From an uncultured Coriobacteriia bacterium (GTDB lineage: Bacteria; Actinomycetota; Coriobacteriia; Anaerosomatales; PALSA-660), in contig OY968780.1 of the NCBI GenBank assembly GCA_963695385.1, forward strand, positions 363,339 through 427,338: DNA of 64,000 nt, in the 5' to 3' direction. This document shows, piece by piece, positions 10,119 to 50,849 of this stretch. The translations under genes and the position numbers were made by a program. The first letter of the stretch is position 1; every line of letters begins with the position of its first letter. The notes under the pieces were generated by a model. That model was not told the origin of the DNA. It did no database searches and saw only the letters and a list, made by a program, of their open reading frames with translations.

Positions 10119-10355
10119 AGACCGGCGGGACCTTCCCGCACCCGGGACGAACGTGGAGTCCTGAGGGCGATGGAAGCCGGAAGTCGCCGCGGCATTGCGA
10201 CCCTCGCGACGGCCGAAACCTGTCTCCCGGGACCTTCTGATAGACTGTCGGGCGCGAGGAGCTGCCGCTCCAGACGGCGCCGCGGACTGCCGTCGGCGCC
10301 CCGCACGCACCGCCGCCACGTTCCCAGCATCGCATTCGAAGGGACCCTGCCGCAG

Positions 10356-11405
10356 ATGGCTTTCAACGACACGTTTCTGCGCGCCTGCAGGCGCGAGCCG
10401 ACCGAGAACACGCCGGTCTGGATGATGCGCCAAGCGGGGCGCTACCTGCCCGAGTACCGCGCCATCCGCGAGAAGCACGACTTCCTGGAGATGTGCAAGA
10501 CGCCCGAACTCGCGGCCGCGGTGACGCTGCAGCCCGTCGACCTCGTGGGTGTGGACGCCGCCATCCTGTTCGCCGACATCCTCCTTCCGCTGGAGGGCAT
10601 GGGTCTTGAGCTCGCGTTCGCCAAGGGCGGCGGGCCCGTCATCGGCAATCCCATCCGCACGGTGGCCGACGTCGGCAAGCTGCGCGTATCCGACCCGCTG
10701 GCTGACACCGGCTATGTCATGGACGCCATAAGGCTGCTCCGCCGGGAACTCGAGGGCAGGGTGCCGCTCATCGGCTTCGCGGGCGCGCCGTTCACGCTCG
10801 CCTCGTACATGATCGAGGGGGGTTCGACGCGCGACTACATCGAGTGCAAGAAGCTCATGTGGTCGGAGCCGGAGGCTTGGGACTCGCTCATGCGCGTCAC
10901 CACCGATACCGTCATCGCGTATCTGAAGGCGCAGGTCGAAGCCGGCGCGCAGGCTGTGCAGGTGTTCGATTCGTGGGTCGGGTTCGTATCTCCGGCCGAC
11001 TACCGCCGCTCGATCCTCCCGCACACCAAGCGTCTGATCGAGGAGGTCTCCACCACCGGTGTGCCCGTGATCAACTTCGCGAACAACGCCTCGGGCATGC
11101 TCGAAGACGTCGCGTCCGCCGGGGGGGACGTCATCGGCTTGGACTGGCGAATAGACATCGACGTGGCGATCGAGCGGCTTGGTGACGGCTTCGCGGTGCA
11201 GGGCAACCTCGATCCGACGTCTCTGTTCGCGCCCCCCGAGACCATCGAGAGACTCGCGGTGGACATCCTGGAGCGGGTCGGGACGCGGCCTGGGCACATA
11301 TTCAACCTGGGGCACGGCATCCACAAGGAGACGAAGCCCGCTCACGCACGCGCGCTTATAGACGCCGTGCACAGTCACTCCGCGCGCATCAGGTCGGCGA
11401 AGTAG
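10356..11405 (+). CDS. hemE: uroporphyrinogen decarboxylase
   Basis: PVWMMRQAGRYLPEYR N-terminal signature. The conserved start is ATG 10356, not ORF-track 10170. Confidence 0.9.
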   Translation: MAFNDTFLRACRREPTENTPVWMMRQAGRYLPEYRAIREKHDFLEMCKTPELAAAVTLQPVDLVGVDAAILFADILLPLEGMGLELAFAKGGGPVIGNPIRTVADVGKLRVSDPLADTGYVMDAIRLLRRELEGRVPLIGFAGAPFTLASYMIEGGSTRDYIECKKLMWSEPEAWDSLMRVTTDTVIAYLKAQVEAGAQAVQVFDSWVGFVSPADYRRSILPHTKRLIEEVSTTGVPVINFANNASGMLEDVASAGGDVIGLDWRIDIDVAIERLGDGFAVQGNLDPTSLFAPPETIERLAVDILERVGTRPGHIFNLGHGIHKETKPAHARALIDAVHSHSARIRSAK

Positions 11406-11407
11406 GC

Positions 11408-12418
11408 GTGGCCGAGACTCCGAACACGGGAGTCCTTCTCACGGCGTTCGGAGGACCAGACTGCCTCGACGCGGTCGCGCCGTTCATGTCGAGCCTCATG
11501 GGGCAGGAGGCGCCCGCCGAAGCCGTCGAATCCGCCAAGCAGCGATATGTGGCGATCGGCGGCTGCTCGCCCCTGCCCGCAATCGCCGAGAGGATAGCCG
11601 CCGCTCTGGAGCGGAGCCTGAACGGACTTCCCGTCGGCGAGGGACGTGCCGGCGAGGGCGAGGGAACGGTCCGCACGCCGGTGGCGCTCGGCATGCGCTA
11701 CTCGCAGCCCAGCATCGGGCAGGGCGTCGCGGACCTGTGCGCGCGGGGCGTAAGGCGCGTCGTGTGGACGAGCCTGTCGCCTTTCGAGTCCCAGGTGAGC
11801 ACGGGCGCGTATCGCAGCGCTGTCGAGTCCGCTTGCGTCGCATGTGGTGTCGAGGTCGTCGAAGCGGATCGCTACTCCTCCGCGGAGCCGTTCACTCGCC
11901 TGCTGGCCGAGGCGTGCATCGAGGCGCTCAACCGTATGCCTGACACTTCGCGCCCCCTGGTCGTGATGACGGCGCACAGCTTGCCTTCGACCGACGAGGG
12001 GGCGACCGTCTACGTCGGGCAACTCACCGCGGTAGCGGCACAGGTGGCGGCGCGGGTCGGGTTGGGTCCCGTGGACGCGGATTTCCTGTCCAGGATGCTG
12101 GAGATCCGCGCCTTCGGCGGGTACGGTCCACACGCCGTGTGGATGCTCGCATACCAGTCCAAGGGCAAGCGCGGCGGGCAGTGGCTCGAGCCCGACCTCG
12201 ACCAGGTGATCGACGCGGCTGCCGGTGTGGGATGCCGGGCCGTGGTGGTCTGCCCGATCGGGTTCGTCACCGACCACCTGGAGACGCTCTACGACCTGGA
12301 CATAGCAGCGGCGGCTCGAGTGACCGGTCACGGGATGACGTTCCTGCGCTCGCGCGTTCCCAACGACGACCCGCTGATGATCGAGGCGCTCGCGCAGGCG
12401 GTCGGGGCGCGCTTGTGA
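11408..12418 (+). CDS. hemH: ferrochelatase (coproporphyrin ferrochelatase type)
   Basis: Contains LLTAFGGP, MTAHSLP and GFVTDHLETLYDLD motifs. GTG start is 2 nt after the hemE stop. Confidence 0.9.
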   Translation: MAETPNTGVLLTAFGGPDCLDAVAPFMSSLMGQEAPAEAVESAKQRYVAIGGCSPLPAIAERIAAALERSLNGLPVGEGRAGEGEGTVRTPVALGMRYSQPSIGQGVADLCARGVRRVVWTSLSPFESQVSTGAYRSAVESACVACGVEVVEADRYSSAEPFTRLLAEACIEALNRMPDTSRPLVVMTAHSLPSTDEGATVYVGQLTAVAAQVAARVGLGPVDADFLSRMLEIRAFGGYGPHAVWMLAYQSKGKRGGQWLEPDLDQVIDAAAGVGCRAVVVCPIGFVTDHLETLYDLDIAAAARVTGHGMTFLRSRVPNDDPLMIEALAQAVGARL

Positions 12419-12470
12419 GGGCGCCATCCGGACGACGCGGCGCATCTCGACCCTCGGGGAGGAACCGCGC

Positions 12471-13946
12471 ATGAGGCGAGTGGTCGTCATCGGCGGCGGG
12501 GTCGCGGGACTGGCCGCGGCGTACAAGGTGCGGCGCGCGGCCGACGAGGGACACGACGTCGCCTTCACTCTGGTCGAGAAGGACTCGCGGCTGGGCGGCA
12601 AGGTGGCCACCGAGAGCGTGGACGACTTCGTGATCGACGGCGGCCCGGATTGCTTTCTGACCAGCAAGCCGGCGGTGCACCGTATCGCCCGGCTCACCGG
12701 CATCGAGGACGACAAGCTGCCCAGCGACGAGTCGCGCAAGGGAACGCTCATCCTGTCCCGCGATCGCCTGCACAGGATGCCCGAGGGCGTGATGATGTTC
12801 GCGCCCACGAAGTTCTGGCCGTTCGCCACCACAAGCCTGTTCTCGCTGCGCGGGAAGGTGCGCATGGGGCTGGACGCGTTCATTCCGAGGAAGCGCGTGG
12901 CCGAGGGCGAGCTCAACGACGAGACCCTCGAGAGCCTGATCGTGAGGCGCATGGGCCGCGAGTGTCTTGACCGCCTGGCCGAGCCTCTGGTCGGGGGAGT
13001 GCACGCCTCCGACCCGGCGACGATGTCTCTGGCGGCAACGTTCCCGAGCCTTCTGGAGATGGAGCAGAGGCACGGCAGCCTGCTGGCCGGCTTTCTGGCC
13101 CAGCGCAAGATGGTCGACGAGATGCGCCGCAAGTACCCCCCAGACCCCCTCAAGCCGCGGACCTTCTTCACGTCCTTCGCGCGCGGGATGGCCGAGCTCC
13201 CCCAAGCCATGTCCGTCTCGGCGGGCGCGGAAGACATGCGCACGGGCGTCTCGGTCGAACGGCTGGAGCGCGCGGGGTCCGGGTGGAGGGTTCACCTGTC
13301 GGATGGTGAGGCGCTCGACGCCGACGCCGTCATAGTGGCGACGGAAGGCTGGGCCGCGGCCAAGCTGCTCGCGCCGGTCGACGCGGACGTCGGCTCAGCT
13401 CTCGAGGAGATCCCATACTCGTCTGCTGCGACGGTGTCCCTTGCATTCGACACGGAGGACGTCGGCTTCGACCTCAACGCGTTCGGCGTGCTGTGCCCCA
13501 TGGCCGAGAAGCGTGCGCTGCTCGCCGCCACCTACTCGTCGACGAAATGGCGGGGACGCGCCCCCGAGGGCAAGACCCTCCTGCGCGGGTTCCTCGGAGG
13601 TCCGCACAACCAGGCGATCATGAAGCGCTCCGACGACGATCTCACGCAGGTGGTGATCTCGGAGATGCGCTCGATCCTTGGGCTGAAGGCGGACCCCTCC
13701 TTCGTCCGGGTGTTCCGCTGGCCCGACGCCATGCCGCAGTACACGATGGGGCATCTCGGCCGCGTTGCCCTGGTCGAGCGCGCGATGGTGGCCACGCCGG
13801 GGCTGGCGGTGGCCGGAGGCGCCTACAGCGGCGTGGGCGTGCCGAACTGCATCGAGACCGGGGAAAAGGCGGTTACCAAGGTACTCGCCGACTTGGGGAT
13901 GGTGCTGGAGGAGGACTTGGGGGAGCCGGAGAAGCGGGCATACTGA
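12471..13946 (+). CDS. hemY: protoporphyrinogen/coproporphyrinogen III oxidase (FAD-dependent, HemY type)
   Basis: N-terminal VVVIGGGVAGLAAAY dinucleotide-binding motif. Gene order hemE-hemH-hemY matches the Bacillus/Actinobacteria operon. Confidence 0.85.
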   Translation: MRRVVVIGGGVAGLAAAYKVRRAADEGHDVAFTLVEKDSRLGGKVATESVDDFVIDGGPDCFLTSKPAVHRIARLTGIEDDKLPSDESRKGTLILSRDRLHRMPEGVMMFAPTKFWPFATTSLFSLRGKVRMGLDAFIPRKRVAEGELNDETLESLIVRRMGRECLDRLAEPLVGGVHASDPATMSLAATFPSLLEMEQRHGSLLAGFLAQRKMVDEMRRKYPPDPLKPRTFFTSFARGMAELPQAMSVSAGAEDMRTGVSVERLERAGSGWRVHLSDGEALDADAVIVATEGWAAAKLLAPVDADVGSALEEIPYSSAATVSLAFDTEDVGFDLNAFGVLCPMAEKRALLAATYSSTKWRGRAPEGKTLLRGFLGGPHNQAIMKRSDDDLTQVVISEMRSILGLKADPSFVRVFRWPDAMPQYTMGHLGRVALVERAMVATPGLAVAGGAYSGVGVPNCIETGEKAVTKVLADLGMVLEEDLGEPEKRAY

Positions 13947-17038: not shown

Positions 17039-17602
17039 CTAGGTCCGACGCGGTCCCTTGGAGAACGTGCGGATCGCCTCGAGCACCTGAGCGTCGGCAG
17101 AATCCCCGACGCGAGGCGTGGGGTGGACACCGTGCTCCCCAAGCACCTCGAGAACCGCCGCCGCGGCCGCCGGAACGGACGCCTCGACGCCTGGAGTCAG
17201 CCCGATCTCGAACGTGGTCATGTCCTCGATCTGGATGCCGATGCACTCGGCCTTAGGCGTGGCGCCGATCAGCATCGCGGCCTGGAGGACGTCCACGAAG
17301 CGGATGTCGTGGAGCGAGTGCATCACCTGGTTGGGCGCCATCTCCTCGGGCGAGAGGCGGACTATCGTGCCGGGTTCCTCGCCGGTGCCGTCCACCGCGT
17401 CGACGACCAGCATGTAGTCGCACTCGCGGAACAGGTGAAGGATGCTCATGCCCATCGTGCCGACATCCAGCACCTTGACGTTGTCGGGGAACTCGAGTGC
17501 GGCCATCAGTGACTCGACGACGCGGACGCCGACACCCTCGTCACGAAGGAGAGGGTTTCCCATCCCCATGACCGTTACGCGCTCGGCGGGCACCGTTACC
17601 AC
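17039..17602 (-). CDS. [NiFe] hydrogenase maturation endopeptidase (HyaD/HybD family)
   Basis: Contains VMGMGNPLLRDEGVGVRVV, then VVDAVD and a later His motif. Overlaps the upstream small-subunit stop by 7 nt. The exact start codon is uncertain (GTG 17602 or a downstream GTG). Confidence 0.85.
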   Translation of the reverse strand: MVTVPAERVTVMGMGNPLLRDEGVGVRVVESLMAALEFPDNVKVLDVGTMGMSILHLFRECDYMLVVDAVDGTGEEPGTIVRLSPEEMAPNQVMHSLHDIRFVDVLQAAMLIGATPKAECIGIQIEDMTTFEIGLTPGVEASVPAAAAAVLEVLGEHGVHPTPRVGDSADAQVLEAIRTFSKGPRRT

Positions 17603-18720
17603 TCGCCCGGGTCTTCGGCGACGGCTGCCTGCACAGGCGCCTCCGCGGTCTCCTCGAGTCGGCCGCGCGCCGTCTCGGCCACGCCGTACAGAGCGAACCC
17701 GCCTGCCACTCCGGCGGCCGAGATGGCCGCGACCGTCTCGGGCTGGAGCCCTGTTCCCCAGAGGCCCGTGCCGATCGCGCGTGTCCTCGACAGGAACGGT
17801 GCGTCGTTATCGACCCAGTTGAGGTTGCCGCACCCGATGCAGGGGGAGCCGGACTCTACGCACCAGCTGGCGCGACGGTTCCAGCGCACCCTCGGACAGT
17901 CGGTGAAGGTCTGCGGGCCCTTGCAGCCCATCTTGTACAGACACCAGCCGTTGACCTCGGCCTGCGTCCCGAACTGCTCGACGAACTCGCCGTTCTCGAA
18001 GTGCCCTCGCCTCGGGCAGTTGTCGTGGATGCTCGAGCCGAAGATCAGAGTCGGACGGTTGTGGTCGTCCATGGCCGGAAGCTTGCCCAGCATCAACACG
18101 TCGATGACCACCGCCACGATCCACTCGGGGTTGACCGGGCAGGTCGGCAGGTTGATGGTCTTGGCCGCAAGCTCGGGCATGAAGTCGAGCACGCCCTTGC
18201 CGCCGGCCGGGTTCGGGTTGGCCCGCACCCACCCTCCGTCGACCGCGCAGGAGCCGACGCACACGACGGCGTCGGCCTTGGGAGCGATCTCTTTGAGGAT
18301 ATCCACGCCCGTCCTGCCGCCGATCCTGAGCGTGTTGCCGCCTTCTCCGGTCATGACGGCGCCCTCGGCGATGAGTATGTAGCCACCATCGGCGACCGTC
18401 TTGGCCATGGCGTCCTCGGCCTGCTTGCCGGCCGCAGCCGATATGGTCTCGATGTAGTTGACCGAGAGCAGATCGAGCACGACCGTGGCCACGTCGGGTG
18501 TGTCGACCTGTGCCAGGGATTCGGTGCAGCCCGTGCACAGTCCCATGTCGAACCATATGGCGGGCTTGAGCTTTGCGCCCTTCTCGACCGCGGAGGCTAT
18601 CTGAGGGACATACATCTCGGACAGACCCAGCAGAGCCGCGACGGACCCGCAGTACTTCATGAAGTCGCGGCGGGACACTCCCCGTGCCGCGAGCAGGTCG
18701 TCGATCCACGGTTCCCGCAC
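17596..18720 (-). CDS. [NiFe]/[NiFeSe] hydrogenase small subunit, paralog 1 (Tat signal, C-terminal TM anchor), with no adjacent large subunit
   Basis: Twin-arginine signal SRRDFMKYCGSVAALLG, Fe-S ligand patterns (CTGCTES, HDNCPRRGHF, CLYKMGCKGP, PCIGC) and a hydrophobic tail. The likely start is GTG 18720, 10 nt after GGGGAGG. The ORF-track ATG 18795 adds 25 unconserved residues. Confidence 0.9.
   Translation of the reverse strand: MREPWIDDLLAARGVSRRDFMKYCGSVAALLGLSEMYVPQIASAVEKGAKLKPAIWFDMGLCTGCTESLAQVDTPDVATVVLDLLSVNYIETISAAAGKQAEDAMAKTVADGGYILIAEGAVMTGEGGNTLRIGGRTGVDILKEIAPKADAVVCVGSCAVDGGWVRANPNPAGGKGVLDFMPELAAKTINLPTCPVNPEWIVAVVIDVLMLGKLPAMDDHNRPTLIFGSSIHDNCPRRGHFENGEFVEQFGTQAEVNGWCLYKMGCKGPQTFTDCPRVRWNRRASWCVESGSPCIGCGNLNWVDNDAPFLSRTRAIGTGLWGTGLQPETVAAISAAGVAGGFALYGVAETARGRLEETAEAPVQAAVAEDPGEW
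17784..18706. repeat. 923-bp direct repeat, copy A (core of small-subunit gene)
   Basis: Aligns base-for-base with 24623-25545 at an offset of 6839. I count 12 mismatches and no indels. Similarity stops abruptly at both ends, inside the coding sequence. Confidence 0.9.
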
Positions 18721-18926
18721 GGACGATCTGCCTCCCCGATATGAGTGGTCTGCCACGAATCGTAACTCATGACATGCGCCACGCCGTGCGCTCATGGCCC
18801 GCCGGTGTCGAATGTCCTGATCCGCACCAGTGGTGGTGGTTCGGCGATGCTAGGCATGGCGGTTGCTCGTAACCCACGCATCAAGGGTCGGCGCCGCCAT
18901 CCGGCCGCAGGAGAGTGGGAGCGAAC

Positions 18927-20576
18927 ATGAGCCGGTCGCATGCGAGGGTCATCTTCATGATCCTGCTGTCCGTCGCCCTCGCCGGCGCGTCGCCGTTATC
19001 GTCATTCGCGGAGGCGGACACGGGATTCGGGCTGATCGCCTCCGCGTCGGTGCGCAGCTCGGCTGTGCGGGCGGCATCGGTGAGTATTCTGACGATCTCG
19101 GCTCCGGTATCGGTTTCGCCGGGTTCGCCGGTGTTGATAGTGGGATCGCTCTTCGAGGACGAGGTCGGCGGCTTTCGACCGGACGTTCAGGAGGTCTTCC
19201 TGGAAGCCTCGCCTGACGGCGTGTCGGGATGGACCGTGGTCGAGAGCACGTGGACAGACACGGAGATAGTGCCGGACAGCTACGGCTTCGTCCTGTATCC
19301 GAGCGGCTCGAGGTACTACCGGGTGCGCTACCCGGGCAGCGCATTTCCCGCGGCGACGAGCGACACGGTTCACGTAGCGGTCGAAGTGGCACCATCCCCG
19401 ACGCCGTCACCCACCCCGCCGCCGACACCGACGCCGACACCGACGCCGACGCCGATGCCGACGCCGACGCCTGCGCCGACACCGACGCCTGCGCCGACAC
19501 CGACGCCTGCGCCGACACCGACGCCGACGCCGACGCCTGCGCCGACACCGACGCCTGCGCCGACACCGACGCCGACACCCGCTCCCACGCCCACGCCGCA
19601 GCCAACACCCACGCCGACGTCTGACCCCACGCCGACGCCCGTCCCGCCCTCTCGCGCGCCCGTGGTCATCACCCTTGAGACCCCGACTTCGCTTATCGTG
19701 CCGGGGGCTTCACCGGTGCTTACGGGCGTAGTGAAGAACGCCTCGACTGGTGGTTCAATCGTTGGGATCCCGGTCGCTTTGCAGACATCTCCCGACGGCG
19801 CCACAGCTTGGATCGCCGTTTCCGAATCCAACAGCGACGTCAACGGTCACGCGTGCGAGGTGACCGTCACGACGAGCGCTCACTTCCGTGCCACCTTCGC
19901 CGGCGACGACGCCCACCTTCCCGCCACCAGCGAGCCGAAGCGGCTGGAAGTGGACAGCTCCGTGTCTTTGACTCTCGGCGCCTCTCAGGTCACTGTGGCG
20001 CCGGGGGGCAGCACGACCCTGTCGGGCTCGATCGCCGACGCCTCAGGCGCCCCGCTGACAGGTCCACGGGTCTCCTTGCAGGCGTCGCCTGACGGGATCG
20101 CCGGCTGGATCCCGCTGGGCACGCCGGTGACGGCCACGGGCGGCACGCTGACCTTCTCGATCCGGCCTTCCGCCACCGCCTTCTATCGCGCCGACTTCGC
20201 CACGGACGGGATCTATGCGGCCGCCACCAGCGCCGCGGTGCGGGTGGCGGTCTCGACGTCCAAGCCGGCATCCGCGCTCACGATCGCGACGAATCGCACG
20301 CTTCTCAGGATCGGCAAGGCAGCCACCATTTCCGGGCGCGCGACGCCCAGAGCCGGAATGGTCGGCGCGAGGCTGCGGCTTCTGGTGAAGAAGGCCCGCA
20401 GCTCGCGCTGGACCCTTCTGACGCGGCCGACCATCCGGGGAACCGCCGCGTCCTGGTCGTACCGTCTGACGCTGCGCAGGGGGTCGCCGAAGGGCACGCA
20501 TCAGTTCAAGGTCGTCTACGACGGCGGCGCCTTCCGGTCCTCCTCCTCGCGCGTGATCAAGATCGCCCTGCGCTAG
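18927..20576 (+). CDS. secreted surface protein with four repeated beta-sandwich-like modules and a Pro/Thr-rich linker
   Basis: Signal peptide ([30 protein letters not shown]). Four roughly 95-aa modules share ...SPDG..GW......... and F/YR..F/Y.....A.TS..V.V patterns. A PTPTPA-type linker is also present. Confidence 0.7.
19398..19648 (+). repeat. coding low-complexity tandem repeat (18-nt unit ccgacaccgacgcctgcg, encoding PTPTPA)
   Basis: Read directly from the sequence. It encodes [69 protein letters not shown]. Confidence 0.85.
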
Positions 20577-21919
20577 CCCGGGTGAAGAATGTTCGGAGCG
20601 GGGACGAGCCCGTCGTAGCAGTCGTGTCGAGTCAGGGGAACGCCGCTGCGGCCGTCATCGGCGCGCGCGAGCAGGGTCTGGTACACGGTGGTGAATCCCG
20701 CGGAGAAGCCGTAGGCGCACGCCGACATGTAGAGGCGCCAGATCCGGTAGGTGAGTTCATCCGATGCATCGCACGCGGCATCGCGCTGCCGCTCCAGGTT
20801 CGAGACCCAATGCCTCAGCGTGAGGGCGTAGTGCTCGCGCAGGCTTTCCACGTCGCGGACGTCGAACCCCGCCGTCTCGGCGGCGGCCAGCGTGGTGTGT
20901 ATCGGTACGAGCTCGCCATCGGGGAACACGTAGCGCTGCCAGAAGGTGGGGCCGGTCTCCGTCGGCACTCGACCGGCCGACTGGCGCACGGGGCTGTTCG
21001 CGATGCCGTGGTTCATGAACAGCCCGCCCGGCCGCAGCAGCCGGAATGCCCGGTCGAAGTAGTCGCCCAGCTTCGCTGCGCCGACGTGCTCGAACATGCC
21101 GACGCTGACGATCTTGTCGTAGCAGCCCCAGTCCGTCACCTCGCGGTAGTCCCGGACCTCGGCACGGCACCGATCGGCGAGCCCCGCGCGCGAGAAGCGC
21201 TCATTGGCGAGTCTCGCCTGCGGATCGCTGAGCGTGACGCCGAGCGCATCGGCACCGTATCTGGACGCGGCATGCATCATCAGCCCGCCCCATCCGCATC
21301 CGACGTCCAGCAGGCGGTCCCCCTCGCGCAGTCGCAGCTTCCGGCAGATCAGGTCCAGCTTCTGCTCTTGGGCGGTATCCAGGTCATCGCCGGCATCCTG
21401 GAAATAGGCGCACGAATAGACCATCCTCTGGTCCAGGAACAGCCGGTAGAAGTCGTTCGACACGTCGTAGTGATATGAGACGGCCGTCCGATCGCGACGT
21501 AGGGAATGGGTGGTACCGTGCATCTCCGCCGCCCGGTCGAGGCGGCTGGTCCCGGAGGATGGAAGTCTCGCCACGCGCTGAAGGGCGTTGACCGCGGTCC
21601 GCAGATCCCTGCGCCGCAGCAGCGCGCGGTCCGCCACCGCGATCAGGCTCTCGACGTCACCTTCCACATCGATGTCATCGGTGAGATACGCTTCTCCGAC
21701 CGTGAGGGTGCCGGGATTGAGGAGGATCCGTTTCACCACGGAGGGGTTTCTCAGGACCAGGGTGAACCTTGTGCCCATGCCCGGGTCGGGCCCCAAGGTG
21801 CTCCCGTCCCAAAGGCGCACGCAGAAGTCGAACGGGTGGAGGTCGGAAAGCACCAAGTCCAGGAGCTCGATCGTGGAGCGAGCGTGTCGATCGAGTTCGG
21901 GCGCGAGAGCCGTTCGCAT
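20573..21919 (-). CDS. cfa: cyclopropane-fatty-acyl-phospholipid synthase family SAM methyltransferase
   Basis: Contains [22 protein letters not shown], the SAM motif [10 protein letters not shown] and SVGMFEHVG. Its stop overlaps the stop of the convergent surface-protein gene by 4 nt. Confidence 0.85.
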
Positions 21920-22059
21920 CTGTCATCCCCCGTCCGCGCGTGTTGCCGCGACTCGTCACCGACGACTACGGAGTACCCGCGATGGACCGTTCAGCCACGA
22001 CGAACCGCGAGGCCATCCTGCGAGCGGCCCGAACGCCGGGTGAGCGGCGCAGGACGCGC

Positions 22060-22091
22060 AAAGGCCCGGGGCACGCGGCCCCGGGCCTTTT
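22060..22091. terminator. bidirectional hairpin terminator between the cytochrome b gene and the cfa promoter region
   Basis: A 12-bp perfect stem (AAAGGCCCGGGG / CCCCGGGCCTTT) with a 7-nt loop. A/T runs flank the stem on both strands. Confidence 0.5.
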
Positions 22092-22135
22092 CGCGTCCTG
22101 CGCTGTCATTGATGCACAGCGGCGCCTGGATGAGT

Positions 22136-22786
22136 CTAGCCTTCGTCCTTCGCGGGCGTCTCGATCCAGGCAAACATCAGCTTCGTCGGAGCGACTCCGT
22201 GGATGTTGGCCAGGTACACGTGCACCATGGTGAACAGGATCAGGATCCACATGCCGAAGTAGTGGATCAGGCGCATCGTCATCAGACCCCCCACGGCCTC
22301 CAGCCCCGCGTTGAAGAACGGCCAGATCGACCACTGCGTGGCTGGTCCGTAGATCGCGAATCCGGTGTAAGCCATCAGGTAGGTGATCGGGACCGTGGCC
22401 AGATAAGAGATCTTCTGGAGTGGCCCGTACTTACCCGATATGACGTGCTCCTTGCGCAGGAACAGGTAGAACTTCACGTTCTCCCAGAACTGGTGTCGGT
22501 TCTCCTCCTGCGGCAACCAGTTCTTGACGTCGACCTCCTTCTCGCGCGATCCGAGAAGGACCGCGTCCTTCACCCAGAACGACAGGATGATCCGCGCTGT
22601 CAGGTTCACCACGACCAGATACATCAGCACGAAGTGGATGGCGCGGGCTCCCTGCATGGTCCATGCGAAGAACGGATAGTGGATGTAGAAGCCCGTGAAG
22701 GCGAGTCCGATGATGCAGATCAGGTTCACCCAGTGGATCATCACGAATACCAGCGGGTGCGCCTCACGATAGTGTCCGTGGGACAT
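22136..22786 (-). CDS. Ni/Fe-hydrogenase b-type cytochrome subunit (HyaC-like)
   Basis: Four TM helices with conserved His residues (HWVNL, RAIHFV, RLIHYF, MVHVYL). ATG 22786 lies 5 nt after the extended large-subunit stop and is preceded by AGGTGA. The ORF-track start at TTG 22873 is only the alternative frame of the large-subunit tail. Confidence 0.85.
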   Translation of the reverse strand: MSHGHYREAHPLVFVMIHWVNLICIIGLAFTGFYIHYPFFAWTMQGARAIHFVLMYLVVVNLTARIILSFWVKDAVLLGSREKEVDVKNWLPQEENRHQFWENVKFYLFLRKEHVISGKYGPLQKISYLATVPITYLMAYTGFAIYGPATQWSIWPFFNAGLEAVGGLMTMRLIHYFGMWILILFTMVHVYLANIHGVAPTKLMFAWIETPAKDEG

Positions 22787-22791
22787 GTCGA

Positions 22792-24426
22792 TCACCTGCC
22801 TGCGGGCTTCGACATCACGAACGAGGACTTCTTTGTCTTGGGTTCTATCAACTGAACCCCGCAGCCGATTCAAGGATCGAAGCTGTGGATGATACGCAGG
22901 GCCTCGAGGGGCTTCTCGACGTCCGCCACCGGCGCGCCCACGAGCGCTTCCTCCAGAGGTCCTCGGACGCCCTTGGCGTCACGGGGACAACAGTCCCAAG
23001 TAGAGGGCGAGACAACCTGGTAGTTGGCGATCTTCCCATCCTTGATGTCGATCCAGTGGGCCACCGACCCGCGGGGCGCCTCCCACAGGCCGGCCCCGGC
23101 GCCGTTCGCCTCGACAGGCTCGGTGAAGAACTTCGCCTCGCCACCCTTGATCGCCGAGACGAGCTCGCCTATCCACTTTCCCATCTCATCGGCGATGAAC
23201 TTGGTCTCCAGGTTGCGTGCTGCGACGCGGCCCAACAGGGAGATCAGGACTTCCGGCTTCCCGGCCACTCCCAGCGCTGAGAGCGTGGTGTCGATCAGGG
23301 CCGTGACCTCGGGCACGCCGGAGAGGTACGCAACCAGCATGCGGGAGAGGGGGCCGACCTCCATCGGCTTCTCATTGAGGCGCGGCGCCTTGATCCACGA
23401 GTACTGAGCGGCCGTGTCATACGAGGTGAACTTCGCCTGGGTCTGTCCTTGGGCGGGATTGAGGCCCGAGGGGGAGGAGTACCAAGAGCGCTCGACGTAC
23501 TCCTTGACCTGCTTGACGTCGGGGTCGACGACCTGCAGCTTCCCGTCGAAGATGGCTCCTCGAGGCAGCACGCGCTTCTTGGGGTCGAGACTCTGAGACT
23601 CGAACACGCCCCAGGACAGGAAGTTCTTGCAGCCCTGCCCGTAGCCCGCGGCGTCGATGTAGTAAGGGGCGATCGCCAAGGTGTCGGGGATCATCGTGTT
23701 GGTGACCCAGTCGCTGACGCGTTGCCATCTGTAGAGGACATCATCGAGCTTCTCTTCCGTGGGCATCCAGGCGGTGCCCCCGGGCAGAGAGGTCATGAAA
23801 TGCGGGAACTTGCCGCCCATCACGGCGATGATCGCGGCCGCCTCGGCCTGCATCTCGAGCGCCTCGAGGTAGTGAGCCACGGCGATGAGGTTCAGCTCCG
23901 GGGGGAGCTTCATCGCGGGATGACCCCAGTAACCGTTCGTGAAGATGGACAGCTGCCCGCCGTCGACGAACGCCTTCACTCGCCTCTGGATCGCGCCGAA
24001 GTCCGCCGTGCTCGTTCCGGCCTTCTCGGCCAAGGCGTACGTGTCGGCGATGTTGGCCTTCAACGCGGAGACGACGTCGACGTAGTCCAGCGCAGTGAGC
24101 GTGTAGAACCACAGGATGTGGCTGTGGAGGGACTCGGCGCCCTCGATGATGTTGCGCACGATGCGGGCACCGTCGGGCGGGGTCAGTTTGAGCGCGTCCT
24201 CCGTCGCCTTGGTGGAGGCATGCCCGTGCGGTATGGGACACACGCCGCATATGCGTTGCGCCACGTAGAAGGCGTCCGCGGGTGCTCGACCCTTCAGCAC
24301 GGTCTCCATGCCGCGGTAGAGGCTGCCCGAGGACCAGGCGTCGGTGATCTTGCCGTCGACCACTTCGCATTCGACGCGAAGGTGGCCCTCGATCCTGGTG
24401 ACGGGGTCGATGATCGCTCTGGCCAT
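22792..24426 (-). CDS. [NiFeSe] hydrogenase large subunit, with TGA 22872-22870 read as selenocysteine (544 codons)
   Basis: The N-terminal RICGVCPIPH (RxCGxCxxxH) motif is present. The C-terminus reads HSFDP-TGA-IGCGVQ, so TGA replaces the first Cys of DPCxxCxxH. The frame then stays open for 25 more codons to TGA 22794-22792. ATG 24426 overlaps the small-subunit stop (TGATG). Confidence 0.8.
22840..22859 (-). promoter_or_regulatory. candidate bacterial SECIS hairpin
   Basis: On the minus strand, GGGUUC-AGUUGAUA-GAACCC forms a 6-bp stem with an 8-nt loop containing GU. It begins 10 nt 3' of the in-frame UGA. Confidence 0.45.
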
Positions 24427-25568
24427 CAGATATCGCCTCCCTTCGTGCTCTTGTGTTTCTTGTCCCAGGCCTTCTCGGTCTCGATCGGCGGACCCGACGT
24501 ACGGCCCGCGGCGGCAGATGCGATGCCATGTACCGCCAGACCGACGACCGCCGCACCACCGACTACGACCCCGACGGTCTCCGGCCGTACTCCGCCAAGA
24601 CCCGGCAAGCTGACATTGGTCATCCTCGACAGGAACGGTGCGTCGTTGTCGACCCAGTTGAGGTTGCCGCACCCGATGCAGGGGGAGCCGGACTCGACGC
24701 ACCAGCTGGCGCGGCGGTTCCAGCGCACCCTCGGGCAGTCGGTGAAGGTCTGCGGGCCCTTGCAGCCCATCTTGTAGAGACACCAGCCGTTGACCTCGGC
24801 CTGCGTCCCGAACTGCTCGACGAACTCGCCGTTCTCGAAGTGCCCTCGCCTCGGGCAGTTGTCGTGGATGCTCGAGCCGAAGATCAGGGTCGGACGGTTG
24901 TGGTCGTCCATGGCCGGCAGCTTGCCCAGCATCAACACGTCGATGACCACCGCCACGATCCACTCGGGGTTGACCGGGCAGGTCGGCAGGTTGATGGTCT
25001 TGGCCGCAAGCTCGGGCATGAAGTCGAGCACGCCCTTGCCGCCGGCCGGGTTCGGGTTGGCCCGCACCCACCCTCCGTCGACCGCGCAGGAGCCGACGCA
25101 CACGACGGCGTCGGCCTTGGGAGCGATCTCTTTGAGGATATCCACGCCCGTCCTGCCGCCGATCCTGAGCGTGTTGCCGCCTTCTCCGGTCATGACGGCG
25201 CCCTCGGCGATGAGTATGTAGCCGCCATCGGCGACCGTCTTGGCCATGGCGTCCTCGGCCTGCTTGCCGGCCGCCGCCGATATGGTCTCGATGTAGTTGA
25301 CCGAGAGCAGATCGAGCACGACCGTGGCCACGTCGGGTGTGTCGACCTGTGCCAGGGACTCGGTGCAGCCCGTGCACAGTCCCATGTCGAACCATATGGC
25401 GGGCTTGAGCCTGGCGCCCTTCTCGACCGCGGAGGCTATCTGAGGGACATACATCTCGGACAGACCCAGCAGAGCCGCGACGGACCCGCAGTACTTCATG
25501 AAGTCGCGGCGGGACACTCCCCGTGCCGCGAGCAGGTCGTCGATCTCGTCACGCGTTCCCTTCGCCAT
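24426..25568 (-). CDS. [NiFe]/[NiFeSe] hydrogenase small subunit, paralog 2 (Tat signal, C-terminal TM anchor), in an operon with the large subunit and cytochrome b
   Basis: ATG 25568 lies 8 nt after AAGGAGG. The Tat motif is SRRDFMKY. The core is identical to paralog 1 except for one K/R change, while the N-terminal 8 aa and the C-terminal roughly 60 aa differ. Confidence 0.9.
   Translation of the reverse strand: MAKGTRDEIDDLLAARGVSRRDFMKYCGSVAALLGLSEMYVPQIASAVEKGARLKPAIWFDMGLCTGCTESLAQVDTPDVATVVLDLLSVNYIETISAAAGKQAEDAMAKTVADGGYILIAEGAVMTGEGGNTLRIGGRTGVDILKEIAPKADAVVCVGSCAVDGGWVRANPNPAGGKGVLDFMPELAAKTINLPTCPVNPEWIVAVVIDVLMLGKLPAMDDHNRPTLIFGSSIHDNCPRRGHFENGEFVEQFGTQAEVNGWCLYKMGCKGPQTFTDCPRVRWNRRASWCVESGSPCIGCGNLNWVDNDAPFLSRMTNVSLPGLGGVRPETVGVVVGGAAVVGLAVHGIASAAAGRTSGPPIETEKAWDKKHKSTKGGDI
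24623..25545. repeat. 923-bp direct repeat, copy B (core of small-subunit gene)
   Basis: See copy A (17784-18706). There are 12 mismatches, 11 synonymous and 1 K/R. Confidence 0.9.
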
Positions 25569-46430: not shown

Positions 46431-46580
46431 TCTCGTGGCCTAGCGTCCATGGCAGGTCTCGGACTATCATCGCCGAAATGTTACGGAGGTCTCCACGCAT
46501 CCGCGAGGGTCGGCTTTGCCATACCCGCGCATCCGCCTGGAGCGTACACGCGACTTTGGAGGTCGAAGAGGGGTGAGCGA

Positions 46581-47888
46581 GTGACGGTACGCACATTCCG
46601 AGGCGGCGTGCATCCTCCGGACCACAAGGAGGCCACCGCGGGCCGGGCGACTGAGCTGGGTCCCATGGCCGCGCAGTTGGTCGTGCCGATGAGCCAGCAC
46701 CTTGGCGCGCCGTGCCGACCGACCGTGGAGAAGGGTGAGCTGGTGCAACGAGGCCAGGTCATCGGCGATGTCGATGCGATGGTCAGCGCGCCGGTCCACA
46801 GCCCCGTCAACGGCGAGGTGGTCGCCGTGGGCAAGGTGCTGACCGCCGGCGGCATGCGAGTCGATGCCGTGACCATCGCACCGGACCCCGAGCAGGACTT
46901 CGAGCAGTTCGTGCCGGTGCAGGCCGCCGACGAAAGTGTCCCCGCTCTTGCGCGCGCCGCCGGCATCGTAGGTATGGGGGGCGCCGCCTTCCCGGCCGCG
47001 GTGAAGCTCCTTCCGCCCAAGCACTTCACGATCGACACCGTCATCCTCAACGGGTGCGAATGCGAACTCTTCCTGACCTGTGACCATCGGGTGATGATCG
47101 AGCAGACGGCGCAGGTGATGGCGGGCGCGCGTCACATCGCGACGGCCGTCGGCGCGAAGGACGTCTTCGTCGCGGTTGAGGACAACAAACCCGACGCGAT
47201 CGACGCACTGCGCAAGGCCGCGGCCGGCACCGGTATCGAGATCGTGCCGCTGCGGACGAGGTACCCGCAGGGCGCCGAGAAGCAACTCATCTTCGCGGTG
47301 ACCGGCAGGGCGGTTCCGAGGGGGCAGCTGCCGGCGTCGGTCGGTGTGCTGGTCCACAACGTCGGCACCGCCGTGGCGATAACAGACGCCGTGGAGCGGC
47401 ACAAGCCGTTGATGGAGCGGGTGGTCACGGTCTCGGGCCAGGTCGCCAAGCCTGGCAACTACCGGGTCCTGATCGGTACCCCGATCTCCGCGCTGATCGA
47501 AGCGGCCGGCGGGTTGGTCGAGCCGGTAGGGCGGGTGATCGCCGGCGGACCAATGACCGGCGCGCCGCTCGCGACTCTGGACGTTCCGGTCGTGAAGGGG
47601 ACATCCGGGGTCGTCGCTTTGACCCCGGCGCAATCCGCGCCCCTGGTCGACGGCGATCAGCCCTGCATCCGCTGCGGGAGTTGCGTCGAGGTCTGTCCGA
47701 TGACTCTGCACCCGTTCGCGATCGCGTCCTACGCGGATCGGCGCATGTGGGACGGGGTCGAGCGCTTCCATGCTCTCGACTGCATCGAGTGCGGTTGCTG
47801 CAGCTACATGTGCCCCACTCGGCGTCCGCTCGTCCAGCTCATCAAGACGGGCAAGGCCGCCCTCATGCTGAAGGGGGCGAAGAAGTGA
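46581..47888 (+). CDS. rnfC: Rnf electron-transport complex subunit C
   Basis: Contains FRGGVHPP, GMGGAAFP and two CxxCxxCxxxCP motifs. GTG 46581 follows a GAGGGG-type RBS. ORF-track 46449 adds non-conserved residues. Confidence 0.9.
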   Translation: MTVRTFRGGVHPPDHKEATAGRATELGPMAAQLVVPMSQHLGAPCRPTVEKGELVQRGQVIGDVDAMVSAPVHSPVNGEVVAVGKVLTAGGMRVDAVTIAPDPEQDFEQFVPVQAADESVPALARAAGIVGMGGAAFPAAVKLLPPKHFTIDTVILNGCECELFLTCDHRVMIEQTAQVMAGARHIATAVGAKDVFVAVEDNKPDAIDALRKAAAGTGIEIVPLRTRYPQGAEKQLIFAVTGRAVPRGQLPASVGVLVHNVGTAVAITDAVERHKPLMERVVTVSGQVAKPGNYRVLIGTPISALIEAAGGLVEPVGRVIAGGPMTGAPLATLDVPVVKGTSGVVALTPAQSAPLVDGDQPCIRCGSCVEVCPMTLHPFAIASYADRRMWDGVERFHALDCIECGCCSYMCPTRRPLVQLIKTGKAALMLKGAKK

Positions 47889-48949
47889 GCGACGAGAAGA
47901 AGGAAGCGCCGGTCGAGCAGCGCATGCCGGTCGTCGCACCGGCCCCGCATGTCGCGGCCGAGCAGAGCAGCCGCACGATCATGCTCTGGGTCATCGGCGC
48001 TCTCACCCCCGCCACGCTCTGGGGAATGTGGTGCTTCATAGCGGCCGATGCGAGCCTGGGCATACGGTCCCTGGTGACTCTGGTCGTCGGGATCGGCTCG
48101 TGCGTTCTGACGGAGGCTCTCTGGAACATCTTGCGCAAGGAGCGGCAGACCATCGGCGATCTCACCGCCGTCATCACGGGTCTGCTGCTGGCGATGTCGG
48201 TTCCGCCCCTCACGCCATGGTGGATCACGATGTTCGGCGGCATAGTCGCCATCGCGCTGGCGAAGATGCTCTTCGGCGGCCTCGGGTTCAACCTGTTCAA
48301 CCCGGCGCTGGTGGGTCGTGCGGTCGTCATGATGTCGTGGCTCGGCGTCATGTCCGACGTGAAGCCCTACCCCGGCGGATGGTTCCGCGCCCTGTCCATG
48401 CCCGCGGCGGGCAAGTTCGACGCCATCAGCGGAGCCACGCGGCTGGCCATCGCCTCGGCCGACCGGGCCGCCCTGGGAGCGTATCACTACGATCTTTCGG
48501 CCCAATACGGTCCGCTGCTGTTCAAGAACCTCGAGGGGTCGCTCGGCGAGGTCTCGGGCGCTCTGCTGATCCTCGGCGGGCTCGTTCTGATCGGCAAGCA
48601 GATCATCGACTGGCGAATCCCCGTCGGCTACATCGGGTCGGTCGCGCTCCTTTCCTGGGCATTCGGGTCCGACCCGATCTTCAACGTGCTCGCCGGCGGG
48701 GTCCTGCTCGGCGCGTTCTTCATGGCGACGGACTACGTCTCCTCATGCGTCACCAGGAACGGGAGACTCGTGTTCGGCATCGGGTGCGGCGTGTTCAACA
48801 TCGTCACGAGGTTCTTCGGCCCGATGCCAGAGACGACCACCTTCGCGATCCTGTTCATGAACGGCCTGGCACCTCTCATCGACCGCATGTTCATGCCCAA
48901 GCCGTTCGGCTGGATGAAGCCCGGGAAGGAGGCGAAGGCGAATGCTTAA
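47885..48949 (+). CDS. rnfD: Rnf complex subunit D
   Basis: Polytopic membrane protein containing FNPALVGR and SGATRL. GTG overlaps the rnfC stop. Confidence 0.85.
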   Translation: MSDEKKEAPVEQRMPVVAPAPHVAAEQSSRTIMLWVIGALTPATLWGMWCFIAADASLGIRSLVTLVVGIGSCVLTEALWNILRKERQTIGDLTAVITGLLLAMSVPPLTPWWITMFGGIVAIALAKMLFGGLGFNLFNPALVGRAVVMMSWLGVMSDVKPYPGGWFRALSMPAAGKFDAISGATRLAIASADRAALGAYHYDLSAQYGPLLFKNLEGSLGEVSGALLILGGLVLIGKQIIDWRIPVGYIGSVALLSWAFGSDPIFNVLAGGVLLGAFFMATDYVSSCVTRNGRLVFGIGCGVFNIVTRFFGPMPETTTFAILFMNGLAPLIDRMFMPKPFGWMKPGKEAKANA

Positions 48950-49559
48950 GTTCTACTTCAAGCTGGGCATCCCGGTGCTTGTGACGTGCATCGTCGCCTC
49001 CGCCGGCCTCGCTGTGACCTATGCGGTGACCAAGGACCGCATCGCGGAGCAGGACCGTCTGGCCAAGGAGAGATCGCTGCGTGTCGTGCTCGCCGATGTC
49101 GGAGCGAAGGGCACCTTCGAGCAGATCAAGGACGCGGCGGTTCTCAAGAAGGCGGCCGTCGCGGCCGGCGAGACCCCCGTCTACGCCCTCTACCGGGCGC
49201 TTGACGGCAGCGGTGGTCAGATCGGATGGGGCGTCCTGGTCGGACCCCGCGGCTACGGGGGTCCCATATCCATGGCGGTAGGTGTGGATAGGAACGGGAA
49301 AGTCACCGGCGCCACAGTAGTGTCCATGAACGAGACCCCGGGTCTCGGAACCAAGGTCAACACCGAGATGGTCAAGGGCAAGCCCTGGCTGCAGGGCTTC
49401 GTGGGAGTCGATGTGGTCGAGGGCGATGCGCTGGTGGCCGAGGTGGACACGATCACAGGAGCGACCAAGTCGTCCCGAGGCGTCAGGAACGGCGTTCAGG
49501 CGGCAGCGAACATCTACGCACAAGCGCTGGCCGGCTTGGGAGAGGTGAGCGGCAAGTGA
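48942..49559 (+). CDS. rnfG: Rnf complex subunit G (FMN-binding)
   Basis: An N-terminal TM helix, ETPGLG, and the flavinylation-site motif TGATKSS. Confidence 0.85.
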   Translation: MLKFYFKLGIPVLVTCIVASAGLAVTYAVTKDRIAEQDRLAKERSLRVVLADVGAKGTFEQIKDAAVLKKAAVAAGETPVYALYRALDGSGGQIGWGVLVGPRGYGGPISMAVGVDRNGKVTGATVVSMNETPGLGTKVNTEMVKGKPWLQGFVGVDVVEGDALVAEVDTITGATKSSRGVRNGVQAAANIYAQALAGLGEVSGK

Positions 49560-50215
49560 ATGAATGGATGCGCGTCTTCCGCAGCGGGATATCGCTGGAG
49601 AACCCGCTGACCGTGCTGATGATCGGTCTGTGTTCCACCCTCGCCGTGTCGTCGAAGCTCGAGGGCTCCCTGTTCATGGGGATCGCGGTCATCTTCGTGC
49701 TCGTCATGAGCAACGTTCTGATCTCGGCCACACGCAAGTTCATCCCGGACGAGGTCCGGATCCCGATCTTCATCGTGATCATCGCGTCGTTCGTCACGAT
49801 CGTCGACCTGGTGATGAAGGCGTTCCTGCCCAGCGTGTACGCCTTCCTCGGGGTGTGGATCCCCCTCATCGTCGTCAACTGCATCGTCTTGGGACGCGCG
49901 GAGGCCTTCGCCTACCACAACACGATCTGGATCTCCGTCGCAGACGGCATCGGGATGGGGATCGGATACACCATCATCATCGCGGGACTCGCCGCGTTCC
50001 GGGAGCTCTTCGGCACGGGCCAGATCGTGTTTCTCAACGCCACACTGATATCGCTGCCTGCCTTCTACAAACCCCCGAACATCCTGATGCTCTTCCCGGG
50101 CGCCTTCATTCTCTTCGGACTGATCGTCGCGGCATCGCATGCGCTCAATCGCAGGAGTCGGGCGAAAGAGGCCGCCCAGGCGGCCGCCCTCAAGATGAGG
50201 ACGGAGGCGGCCTGA
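49556..50215 (+). CDS. rnfE: Rnf complex subunit E
   Basis: Contains LENP......GLCSTLAV and IPLIVVNCIVLGRAE. Confidence 0.9.
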   Translation: MNEWMRVFRSGISLENPLTVLMIGLCSTLAVSSKLEGSLFMGIAVIFVLVMSNVLISATRKFIPDEVRIPIFIVIIASFVTIVDLVMKAFLPSVYAFLGVWIPLIVVNCIVLGRAEAFAYHNTIWISVADGIGMGIGYTIIIAGLAAFRELFGTGQIVFLNATLISLPAFYKPPNILMLFPGAFILFGLIVAASHALNRRSRAKEAAQAAALKMRTEAA

Positions 50216-50216
50216 G

Positions 50217-50837
50217 GTGAGCACACTGACGCAGTTCGCTCTACTGCTTGTGGGATCGGCGCTTGTCAGCAACATCCTGCTTACGAGGTTCATCGCGCTG
50301 TGCAGCTTCTTCGGCATCAGCAACGATATGAACACGTCGATCGGGATGAGCCTCGCCGTCATCTTCGTAATGGTGATGGCCTCCGCCGGAACGTGGCTCT
50401 TCTACTACCTACTTCTCGTACCGCTGGGTGTGGGTGAGTTCCTCTACATCCCGGCGTTCATCCTCGTCATCGCCGCTCTTGTCCAGTTCGTGGAGATGTA
50501 CCTGCGCAAGTACAGCCCCGCTCTCTATCGCGCCATGGGCATCTACCTTCCGCTCATAACCACGAACTGCGCGGTGTTGGCGGCGGCCACGGAGGCCGTG
50601 AAGCCCGGCTTCTTCAAGATGAACATGGCGTACCACTTCACGTTCGGCGAGACCCTCGTCTACAACCTGGGCGTGGCGCTGGGCTTCGGATTCGCGCTCC
50701 TGTGCTTCACGGCGATACGCGAGCGTCTCGAACTCGCGCCGGTGCCCCGCTCGCTGCGCGGGACTCCCATGGCGTTCATTACGGCCGGTCTGCTCTCGCT
50801 CGGCTACATCGGCCTCGGCTCGCTCTTCGGTCTGTAG
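50217..50837 (+). CDS. rnfA: Rnf complex subunit A
   Basis: Contains ALVSNILLT.F...C.F and LPLITTNCAVL. Confidence 0.9.
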   Translation: MSTLTQFALLLVGSALVSNILLTRFIALCSFFGISNDMNTSIGMSLAVIFVMVMASAGTWLFYYLLLVPLGVGEFLYIPAFILVIAALVQFVEMYLRKYSPALYRAMGIYLPLITTNCAVLAAATEAVKPGFFKMNMAYHFTFGETLVYNLGVALGFGFALLCFTAIRERLELAPVPRSLRGTPMAFITAGLLSLGYIGLGSLFGL

Positions 50838-50849
50838 GGGAGGCGCACA

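Follow-up and report, generated by a model that had tools for sequence, protein, structure and literature searches.

Probable non-reciprocal gene conversion between two old small-subunit paralogs at a [NiFeSe] hydrogenase locus of an uncultured Coriobacteriia bacterium

Two small-subunit genes with a shared core

The 64,000-nt stretch of contig OY968780.1 analyzed here (positions 363,339 to 427,338; hereinafter, the window) comes from an environmental Coriobacteriia genome and encompasses a locus that, judging from the sequence, appears to encode a respiratory membrane-bound [NiFeSe] hydrogenase. This locus includes two small-subunit genes, denoted small1 and small2. The window is 67% G+C, and the G+C content by codon position places the real genes of the locus on the minus strand. 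The canonical gene, small2 (24426..25568, minus strand, 380 aa), belongs to what is here called the A type. It starts with an ATG located after AAGGAGG and is the first gene of an operon that continues with the selenocysteine-containing large subunit and cytochrome b; its stop codon overlaps the start of the large-subunit gene (TGATG). The other gene, small1 (17596..18720, minus strand, 374 aa, GTG start), encodes a protein identical to the database entry P0001 and occupies the position of a second, B-type small subunit. It is located directly upstream of the gene for a HycI/HyaD-type maturation endopeptidase (17039..17569, minus strand; Pfam HycI, 5.8e-28), which begins 26 nt past the small1 stop, and has no adjacent large-subunit gene.

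Both of these minus-strand [NiFe(Se)] hydrogenase small-subunit genes (Pfam Oxidored_q6 and NiFe_hyd_SSU_C in each) contain a copy of a 923-bp direct repeat, which was delineated by a repeat search and base-by-base comparison. The copies span 17784-18706 and 24623-25545 and align without gaps at an offset of 6839. Copy 1 corresponds to codons 6-312 of small1 and carries the twin-arginine translocation (Tat) signal SRRDFMK together with all Fe-S ligand motifs; copy 2 corresponds to codons 9-315 of small2. Inspection of the sequences locates the twin-arginine motif GVSRRDFMKYCGS in both genes, inside this tract. The copies differ at 12 of the 923 positions (98.7% identity), namely, in the coordinates of copy 1, at 17809, 17857, 17875, 17896, 17938, 18049, 18079, 18385, 18436, 18520, 18572 and 18574. 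Read in frame on the minus strand, 11 of these differences are synonymous third-position changes and the remaining one corresponds to K50 in small1 and R53 in small2. The base-by-base comparison thus reproduces in full what the initial annotation had reported, that is, the exact coordinates, the offset and the 12 mismatches with their 11 synonymous changes and single K/R difference. A chance origin of this identity is excluded because DNA identity within unconverted pairs of A and B genes in related loci is only about 62%, and their exact runs do not exceed 21 nt.

The abrupt loss of identity inside both coding sequences, which had been noted as well, is borne out by the 30-nt windows flanking the repeat: these match at 8-12 of 30 positions, which is the background level, and both edges are sharp. 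On the 5' side, five codons of small1 (GTG-REPW) and eight codons of small2 (MAKGTRDE) lie outside the repeat. On the 3' side are the diverged C-terminal tails of 62 and 65 codons, respectively, with 30% protein identity and 49% gapped DNA identity, in agreement with the earlier description of differing starts and diverged tails. The segment between the copies (18707-24622, 5,916 bp) contains the genes for a surface protein, cyclopropane-fatty-acyl-phospholipid synthase (cfa), cytochrome b and the TGA-containing large subunit; the original assignment of this content, and of the small-subunit core, the C-terminal anchor and the selenocysteine large subunit, is correct.

The two tails belong to different types. 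The tails of A-type proteins consist of a hydrophobic helix with a histidine (…GLLVHGIAS…) and a basic end (…EKAWDKKxKGGDK). The tail of small2 (24426..24622, minus strand, 65 codons) conforms to this pattern, with the helix VGVVVGGAAVVGLAVHGIA and the basic end ...EKAWDKKHKSTKGGDI, and aligns, the histidine included, to the anchor of Escherichia coli HyaA (E-value of 0.014). The B tails share the motif …AAGAAGAFAxWGVVETARGRL, in which ETARGRL is conserved, and end without the basic KGGDK. The tail of small1 (17596..17783, minus strand, 62 codons) comprises GLQPETVAAISAAGVAGGFALYGVAETARGRL followed by an acidic end, carries the B motif (…AAGVAGGFALYGVAETARGRL), and matches the B gene of the related locus L010 in a tblastn search with an E-value of 2e-10. 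The anchor histidine is replaced by W or Y in small1 and the other aligned B tails, with tyrosine in small1 itself. The net charge after the helix is positive in A and negative in B, for the four tails scored, two of which are of the B type. A hydrophobic 19-mer is present in both window tails (Kyte-Doolittle values of 2.09 and 1.72), and both anchors are predicted to be hydrophobic enough to span the membrane.

Core and tail histories of the A and B types

The closest relatives that could be compared are metagenome contigs and metagenome-assembled genomes (MAGs), the labelled ones mostly from Coriobacteriia or other Actinomycetota, including an Anaerosomatales MAG; a scan of a genome collection identified no relative above 72%. 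The gene order around the locus is shared with these relatives on both flanks, with heme-synthesis genes, inositol monophosphatase and transketolase (tkt) on one, and a HAD hydrolase, a Crp regulator, a TRAM methyltransferase and a T2SSE-type response regulator on the other. The operon order in the relatives is small subunit, large subunit (with selenocysteine), cytochrome b, in many cases including the closest ones a radical-SAM gene, optionally a B gene, the protease and tkt. Orthologs of the A type are found in more than 80 loci, and most relatives possess a single small subunit; some of the close ones (L004 and L007) lack any B gene. In L010 and L087, a second small-subunit gene lies between the radical-SAM gene and the protease, and in L088, L089 and L170, a B gene directly precedes the protease. 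In every B-carrying locus examined, the B-type gene is immediately upstream of the maturation protease and nowhere else.

A search started with the L010 copy delineates the B type as a distinct family of 17 protein clusters with mutual identity of 64-99%, canonical A-type genes being at most 60% identical to this query. Across the B family, no variation is seen at the Cys/His ligands of the Fe-S clusters or in the twin-arginine motif. A metagenome scan with a B-type profile, in search of additional loci with both types, retrieved only two short B contigs, L090 and L093. The B genes of L010 (L010:14416), L087 (L087:10001) and the window start with GTG or TTG, and 9 of the 17 B-type database sequences start with V or L, an observation that takes in the proteins P0127-P0135, whereas every A-type gene starts with ATG (MAQ…); these start codons suggest a lower translation level for the second subunit. 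Taken together, A and B are two old paralogous types of small subunit in Coriobacteriia.

Against this background, the window combines features of both types in a single gene. The A and B proteins of L010 and L087 are 60-61% identical in the core and 28-29% identical in the tail; for small1 and small2, the respective values are 99.7% and 30%. In protein sequence, the nearest A orthologs match the window core at 85-86% identity and B-type cores match it at 58-65%. Both window cores are of the A type and no B-type core is left in the window. The small1 tail, in turn, shows 36-53% identity to B tails and 22-35% to A tails. Neighbor-joining trees were built for the core and the tail separately, with 200 bootstrap replicates. 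In the core tree, small1 and small2 are sisters within the A clade (200/200), and the B clade forms without small1 (200/200). In the tail tree, small1 falls in the B clade (199/200) and never groups with small2 (0/200). The initial annotation had interpreted the mosaic as the product of gene conversion or recombinational replacement and proposed comparing the phylogenies of the two regions across related genomes; these phylogenies indeed conflict, and the discordance between the core (200/200) and the tail (199/200) upholds an exchange between old paralogs.

These observations are best compatible with non-reciprocal conversion in the direction from A to B, which we consider very probable: the A core was copied into the B gene, and the B start, tail and location were kept. 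With all other A genes at 86% identity or less, the resident small2 is the simplest choice of donor. The event is recent, given that the synonymous divergence (dS) between the two cores is about 0.05. The process itself is standard bacterial gene conversion between paralogs, for which tufA and tufB of Salmonella and E. coli are the textbook case of concerted evolution. As with tufA and tufB, the coding sequences of paralogs in one chromosome are homogenized non-reciprocally, with near identity that extends to synonymous sites and unrelated flanks, and gene trees unite the paralogs of one genome. In contrast to the tuf genes, homogenization in the window is confined to the core, the 3' approximately 190 bp and the first 5-8 codons retaining their own histories, and the partners are direct repeats located 6.8 kb apart in one functional locus that were ancestrally about 62% identical. 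The window thus offers a phylogenetically verified case of partial conversion within a respiratory operon of a bacterium, for which the donor, the recipient, the limits of the tract and the approximate age are all defined. In the searchable open-access literature, we found no report of conversion between hydrogenase small-subunit genes.

The window is not the only chimera of this kind. A search of a collection of 5.8 billion protein sequences identifies three proteins with a 'Y'-subtype B tail on an A-clade core, namely P0001 (small1), P0042 and P0145, and a search started with P0042 adds no others. The P0042 gene (L170:510-1661) lies between the end of a radical-SAM gene and the protease. Its core is 95% identical in protein and 93% in DNA to the A gene P0009 (L171:5988-7136), which comes from a sibling sample. 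Codons 10-240 of P0042 are almost identical to those of P0009, and its tail bears no relation to the A tail; in codons 240-290, divergence is higher and B-like residues persist (FGSLEE, WCLYKVGCKGP), so that P0042 is a mosaic with a 3' tract limit unlike that of the window. In the core tree, each chimeric B protein joins the A genes near its own lineage, apart from the other chimeras. These findings suggest that A-to-B conversion may have occurred repeatedly, with varying 3' limits and with the tail spared every time.

The substitution pattern in the converted core bears the signature of constraint. For the comparison of the small1 and small2 cores, the ratio of non-synonymous to synonymous divergence (dN/dS) is about 0.03, and the neutral probability of no more than one non-synonymous change among 12 is 1.5e-6. 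The core is under protein-level purifying selection in both copies, and this dN/dS value suggests that small1 is probably still functional. An A/T in small1 is paired with a G/C in small2 at 11 of the 12 differing sites (p about 0.001), and the G+C content at third codon positions of the core is 0.880 for small1 compared with 0.916 for small2. This A/T bias suggests that codon-usage selection on small1 is weaker, or its expression lower, which would agree with the GTG start of this gene. The divergent first codons drop out of the mature proteins because they lie inside the cleaved signal peptide; the mature subunits should therefore differ at one K/R site and in the anchor of about 60 residues only.

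Conversion tract, mechanism and rival explanations

The tract begins slightly upstream of LLAARGVSRRDF, the first block that A and B have in common, and reaches as far as the last such block (NWVD..APFLSR), at the end of NiFe_hyd_SSU_C. In unconverted A/B pairs, DNA identity is 61-62% and the longest exact runs are 14-21 nt, two of these being at TPFLSR and NWVDA, i.e., at the 3' end of the window tract. The tract therefore appears to cover the entire region in which homology could support strand exchange and to stop where homology collapses. The proposed scenario starts from an ancestral locus with one large subunit, an A gene that headed the operon and a B gene before the protease. The A core, from A codon 9 to ...NDAPFLSR, would then have been copied non-reciprocally into the B gene, either by RecA-type recombination or by a template switch at short homologies; given the little ancestral identity, this first event would be rare. 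After 0.9 kb had become identical, the similarity of the copies could be maintained by ordinary homologous recombination, and selection for a tail-specific role might halt conversion at the tail.

Several points weigh against this scenario. Classical homologous recombination would operate very inefficiently on ancestral A and B genes with about 62% DNA identity. The trees are neighbor-joining trees of short alignments, with only 70 columns for the tail, and only two comparator contigs, L010 and L087, carry A and B together. The comparison set holds no reads, strain variants or sister genome with an unconverted B core. L170 and L171 come from different samples, and it is unproven that P0042 and P0009 share one genome. 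Finally, small1 has a GTG start and no recognizable promoter. The first of these points leads to the alternative of a single replacement by microhomology-mediated template switching or illegitimate recombination, without ongoing concerted evolution. Efficient RecA-dependent recombination is usually thought to require exact identity over roughly 20-30 nt, and the ancestral runs of 14-21 nt are at or below this requirement; two such short runs coincide with the 3' junction. Furthermore, the longest mismatch-free stretch of the repeat, 305 bp, is not significant (p = 0.10), so that several conversion tracts inside the repeat, which had been considered, are rejected and the window gives no sign of more than one. 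A one-off event nevertheless seems rather unlikely: the different 3' limit and the B-like patch of P0042 suggest repeated or partial events, the affinity of each chimeric core with an A gene near its own lineage is expected of repeated homogenization, and once 923 bp had become identical, more RecA-mediated exchange would be expected.

The other explanations dispense with conversion between resident genes altogether. An assembly or polishing artifact, whereby reads of the A gene built or 'corrected' a diverged B core or the core was duplicated in silico, draws some plausibility from a repeat that exceeds the length of short reads, but we consider it very improbable. As the initial annotation had argued from the synonymous differences, the pattern is unlike sequencing or assembly errors: all but one of the 12 differences are synonymous and fall on third positions, and 11 of the sites are directional, A/T versus G/C. 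Moreover, both frames are intact with the junctions at domain boundaries, the small1 and small2 proteins are both on record on one public contig of 2.67 Mb, a true B core at about 62% identity would be too distant from A for reads to be mis-mapped, and similar chimeric B genes exist in independent metagenome assemblies. Equally hard to credit is a fresh partial duplication of small2 beside the protease, with no prior B gene and with ends that diverged or arose de novo. The first five codons of small1 (REPW) do align with neither A nor B N-termini, and the neighborhood is rearranged, with cfa and the surface-protein gene at the radical-SAM site. Such a duplicate, however, would not be expected to carry the B motif and group with B tails in 199 of 200 bootstraps, nor to sit exactly at the B position beside the protease. 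Its tail divergence from small2 (30%) is the same as that of old A/B pairs (28-29%), and a young copy cannot combine a core dS of 0.05 with a tail DNA identity of 49%. Least probable of all, with hardly any weight in our assessment, is horizontal import of the A-type core of small1 from a close relative instead of from small2. The lineage-specific gene gain at this locus (cfa and the surface protein are absent from 86 related loci) is the kind of change that import might bring; against it, the nearest non-self A cores have 85-86% protein identity, compared with 99.7% for the resident copy, and no mobile-element genes are seen nearby. Non-reciprocal A-to-B conversion between the resident genes is thus retained.

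The hydrogenase, its membrane anchors and the surrounding genes

The B core forms the contact surface with the large subunit, yet an A core could take its place without loss of constraint, and the locus encodes a single large subunit; from this we infer that the two small subunits work with one and the same large subunit. By the same reasoning, any B-specific role would reside in the tail, and the chimera suggests that any B-specific function lies in the membrane anchor. It is conceivable, if still a tentative proposal, that the B gene encodes a functional second isoform which works on the same selenocysteine large subunit and whose role is confined entirely to the anchor of about 60 residues, with its lost histidine and acidic end. 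If so, the B anchor could fill a second, non-equivalent anchor site in a dimer of heterodimers on one cytochrome b or, alternatively, could divert electrons from cytochrome b. In that case, the joint adaptation of both cores to one large subunit would be maintained by gene conversion and the tail by selection, and the window chimera would amount to a natural domain-swap experiment in which the tail alone defines the isoform. The analysis also draws attention to the B type as such, which is conserved beside the maturation protease in several environmental Coriobacteriia hydrogenase loci; we found no description of a second, tail-variant small subunit of this type in the searchable open-access literature. 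Annotation pipelines would name both genes 'hydrogenase small subunit', which masks the difference between A and B.

Among characterized enzymes, the gene logic of small subunit, large subunit, cytochrome b and endopeptidase is that of E. coli hydrogenase 1 (Hyd-1; HyaABCD; PDB 4GD3), and the similarity of the window A tail to the HyaA anchor, described above, is in line with this parallel. Hyd-1-type small subunits have a Tat signal and a C-terminal transmembrane anchor (PMC10924467). Unlike in Hyd-1, the large subunit of the window contains selenocysteine, and the relatives of the window often add a radical-SAM gene and, in some cases, a B-type gene before the protease, whereas Hyd-1 has no described second small subunit. 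The hydrogenase clusters of the cultured Anaerosomatales Anaerosoma and Parvivirga are classed as Group 1i, 'Coriobacteriia-type' (HydDB; PMC9686372). As in Group 1i, the cluster in the window consists of small-subunit, large-subunit, cytochrome b and maturation protease genes, with relatives mostly from Coriobacteriia or other Actinomycetota; this likeness in host range and cluster content is indirect support for a Group 1i placement. In contrast to the window, the hydrogen-metabolism passage of that paper gives one small subunit, and a text search of the paper for 'selenocysteine' gave no match (PMC9686372).

The window enzyme shares with the periplasmic [NiFeSe] hydrogenases of Desulfovibrio and Desulfomicrobium (PDB 1CC1, 2WPN) the replacement of the cysteine nickel ligand by selenocysteine in the C-terminal DPCxxC motif. 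Unlike in the solved [NiFeSe] small-subunit chains, where the alignment ends at small2 residue 313 and there is no matched anchor, both window subunits continue into a tail, and the window small subunit is closer to a standard [NiFe] hydrogenase (1H2A, 1.7e-81) than to the [NiFeSe] type (1CC1, 2e-49). No paper on a Coriobacteriia [NiFeSe] hydrogenase was found in the searchable open-access literature. To our knowledge, the [NiFeSe] enzymes of Desulfovibrio and Desulfomicrobium lack a cytochrome b partner.

The large-subunit gene (22795..24426, minus strand, 544 codons; Pfam NiFeSe_Hases, 1.9e-168) contains an in-frame TGA (22870-22872) at the nickel-ligand position of the DP[C/U]xxC motif, which reads DP-TGA-IGCGVQ. 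The frame runs 25 codons beyond the TGA (IGCGVQLIEPKTKKSSFVMSKPAGR), with 19 conserved codons after the IGCGVQ motif. Because 103 related loci have TGA at this position and 18 have a Cys codon, the TGA is taken to be a selenocysteine codon. Beginning 11 nt past the TGA is a hairpin (22859-22840) with a stem of 6 bp and a loop of 8 nt; in a check for a selenocysteine insertion sequence (SECIS), the 61-nt fold after the TGA is no better than that of shuffled sequences (z = 0.16). Genes for selA, selB and selD were not seen among the scanned open reading frames of the window, and no dedicated search of the genome was made. As a separate observation, the nickel-ligand motif (DPU-IG-C-GVQ) ends with Q in the window and its three nearest relatives and with H in 117 of 121 related loci, where the variants are AVH, GVH, SVH or AIH; this is presumably the residue after which the maturation protease cuts. 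The cytochrome b subunit is encoded at 22136..22786 (minus strand; Ni_hydr_CYTB). A formate dehydrogenase, which the combination of a selenocysteine large subunit, cytochrome b and small subunit might bring to mind, was considered and rejected, the Pfam matches being to hydrogenase subunits.

In the relatives, all genes of the locus are co-oriented, unlike in the window. Here, cfa (20573..21919, minus strand; Pfam CMAS, 7.6e-93) and a gene for a secreted Pro/Thr-repeat protein with Ig-like domains (18915..20576, plus strand), which is divergent from small1, form a lineage-specific insert at the place that a radical-SAM gene occupies in many relatives, including the closest. Neither has a homolog in the 86 related loci compared, and the radical-SAM gene (about 440 aa) was searched for and is absent from the whole window. 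Just 3' of cytochrome b, a GC-rich hairpin, GGCCCGGGGC..GCCCCGGGCC, followed by a T run was spotted by eye (22063..22087, strand not assigned) and probably marks the end of the transcript that comprises small2, the large subunit and cytochrome b. This hairpin and the surface-protein gene on the opposite strand imply that small1 and the protease are transcribed here apart from the small2 operon. A consensus scan for promoters and terminators identified no sigma-70-like sites and nothing else of use. The 64-kb window contains no second large subunit and no hyp genes; no mobile-element genes are seen near the locus or in the remainder of the window, which is housekeeping.

The near-identical direct repeats of about 0.9 kb, 6.8 kb apart, have consequences of their own, in that they can break or collapse short-read assemblies. 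Repeat-mediated deletion or amplification, as proposed in the initial annotation, is a reasonable expectation from the arrangement of the copies: recombination between them would delete or tandemly duplicate 6.8 kb with the large subunit, cytochrome b, cfa and the surface-protein gene. In the gene left by a deletion, located before the protease, the A start would be followed by the common core and a B tail; the locus would have no large subunit, and the enzyme would be abolished unless a large subunit is encoded elsewhere in the genome.

Additional observations concern the surroundings of the repeat. Within the surface-protein gene, a tandem periodicity of 18/12 nt at 19354-19681 encodes a (PTPTPA)n linker of about 80 residues, which is likely to vary in length. 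Genes of heme biosynthesis (URO-D and a protoporphyrinogen/coproporphyrinogen-oxidase-like amine oxidase; 10119-13946) adjoin the hydrogenase locus in the window, as they do in the relatives, and an Rnf-type complex is encoded about 20 kb away from the locus (46431-51761).

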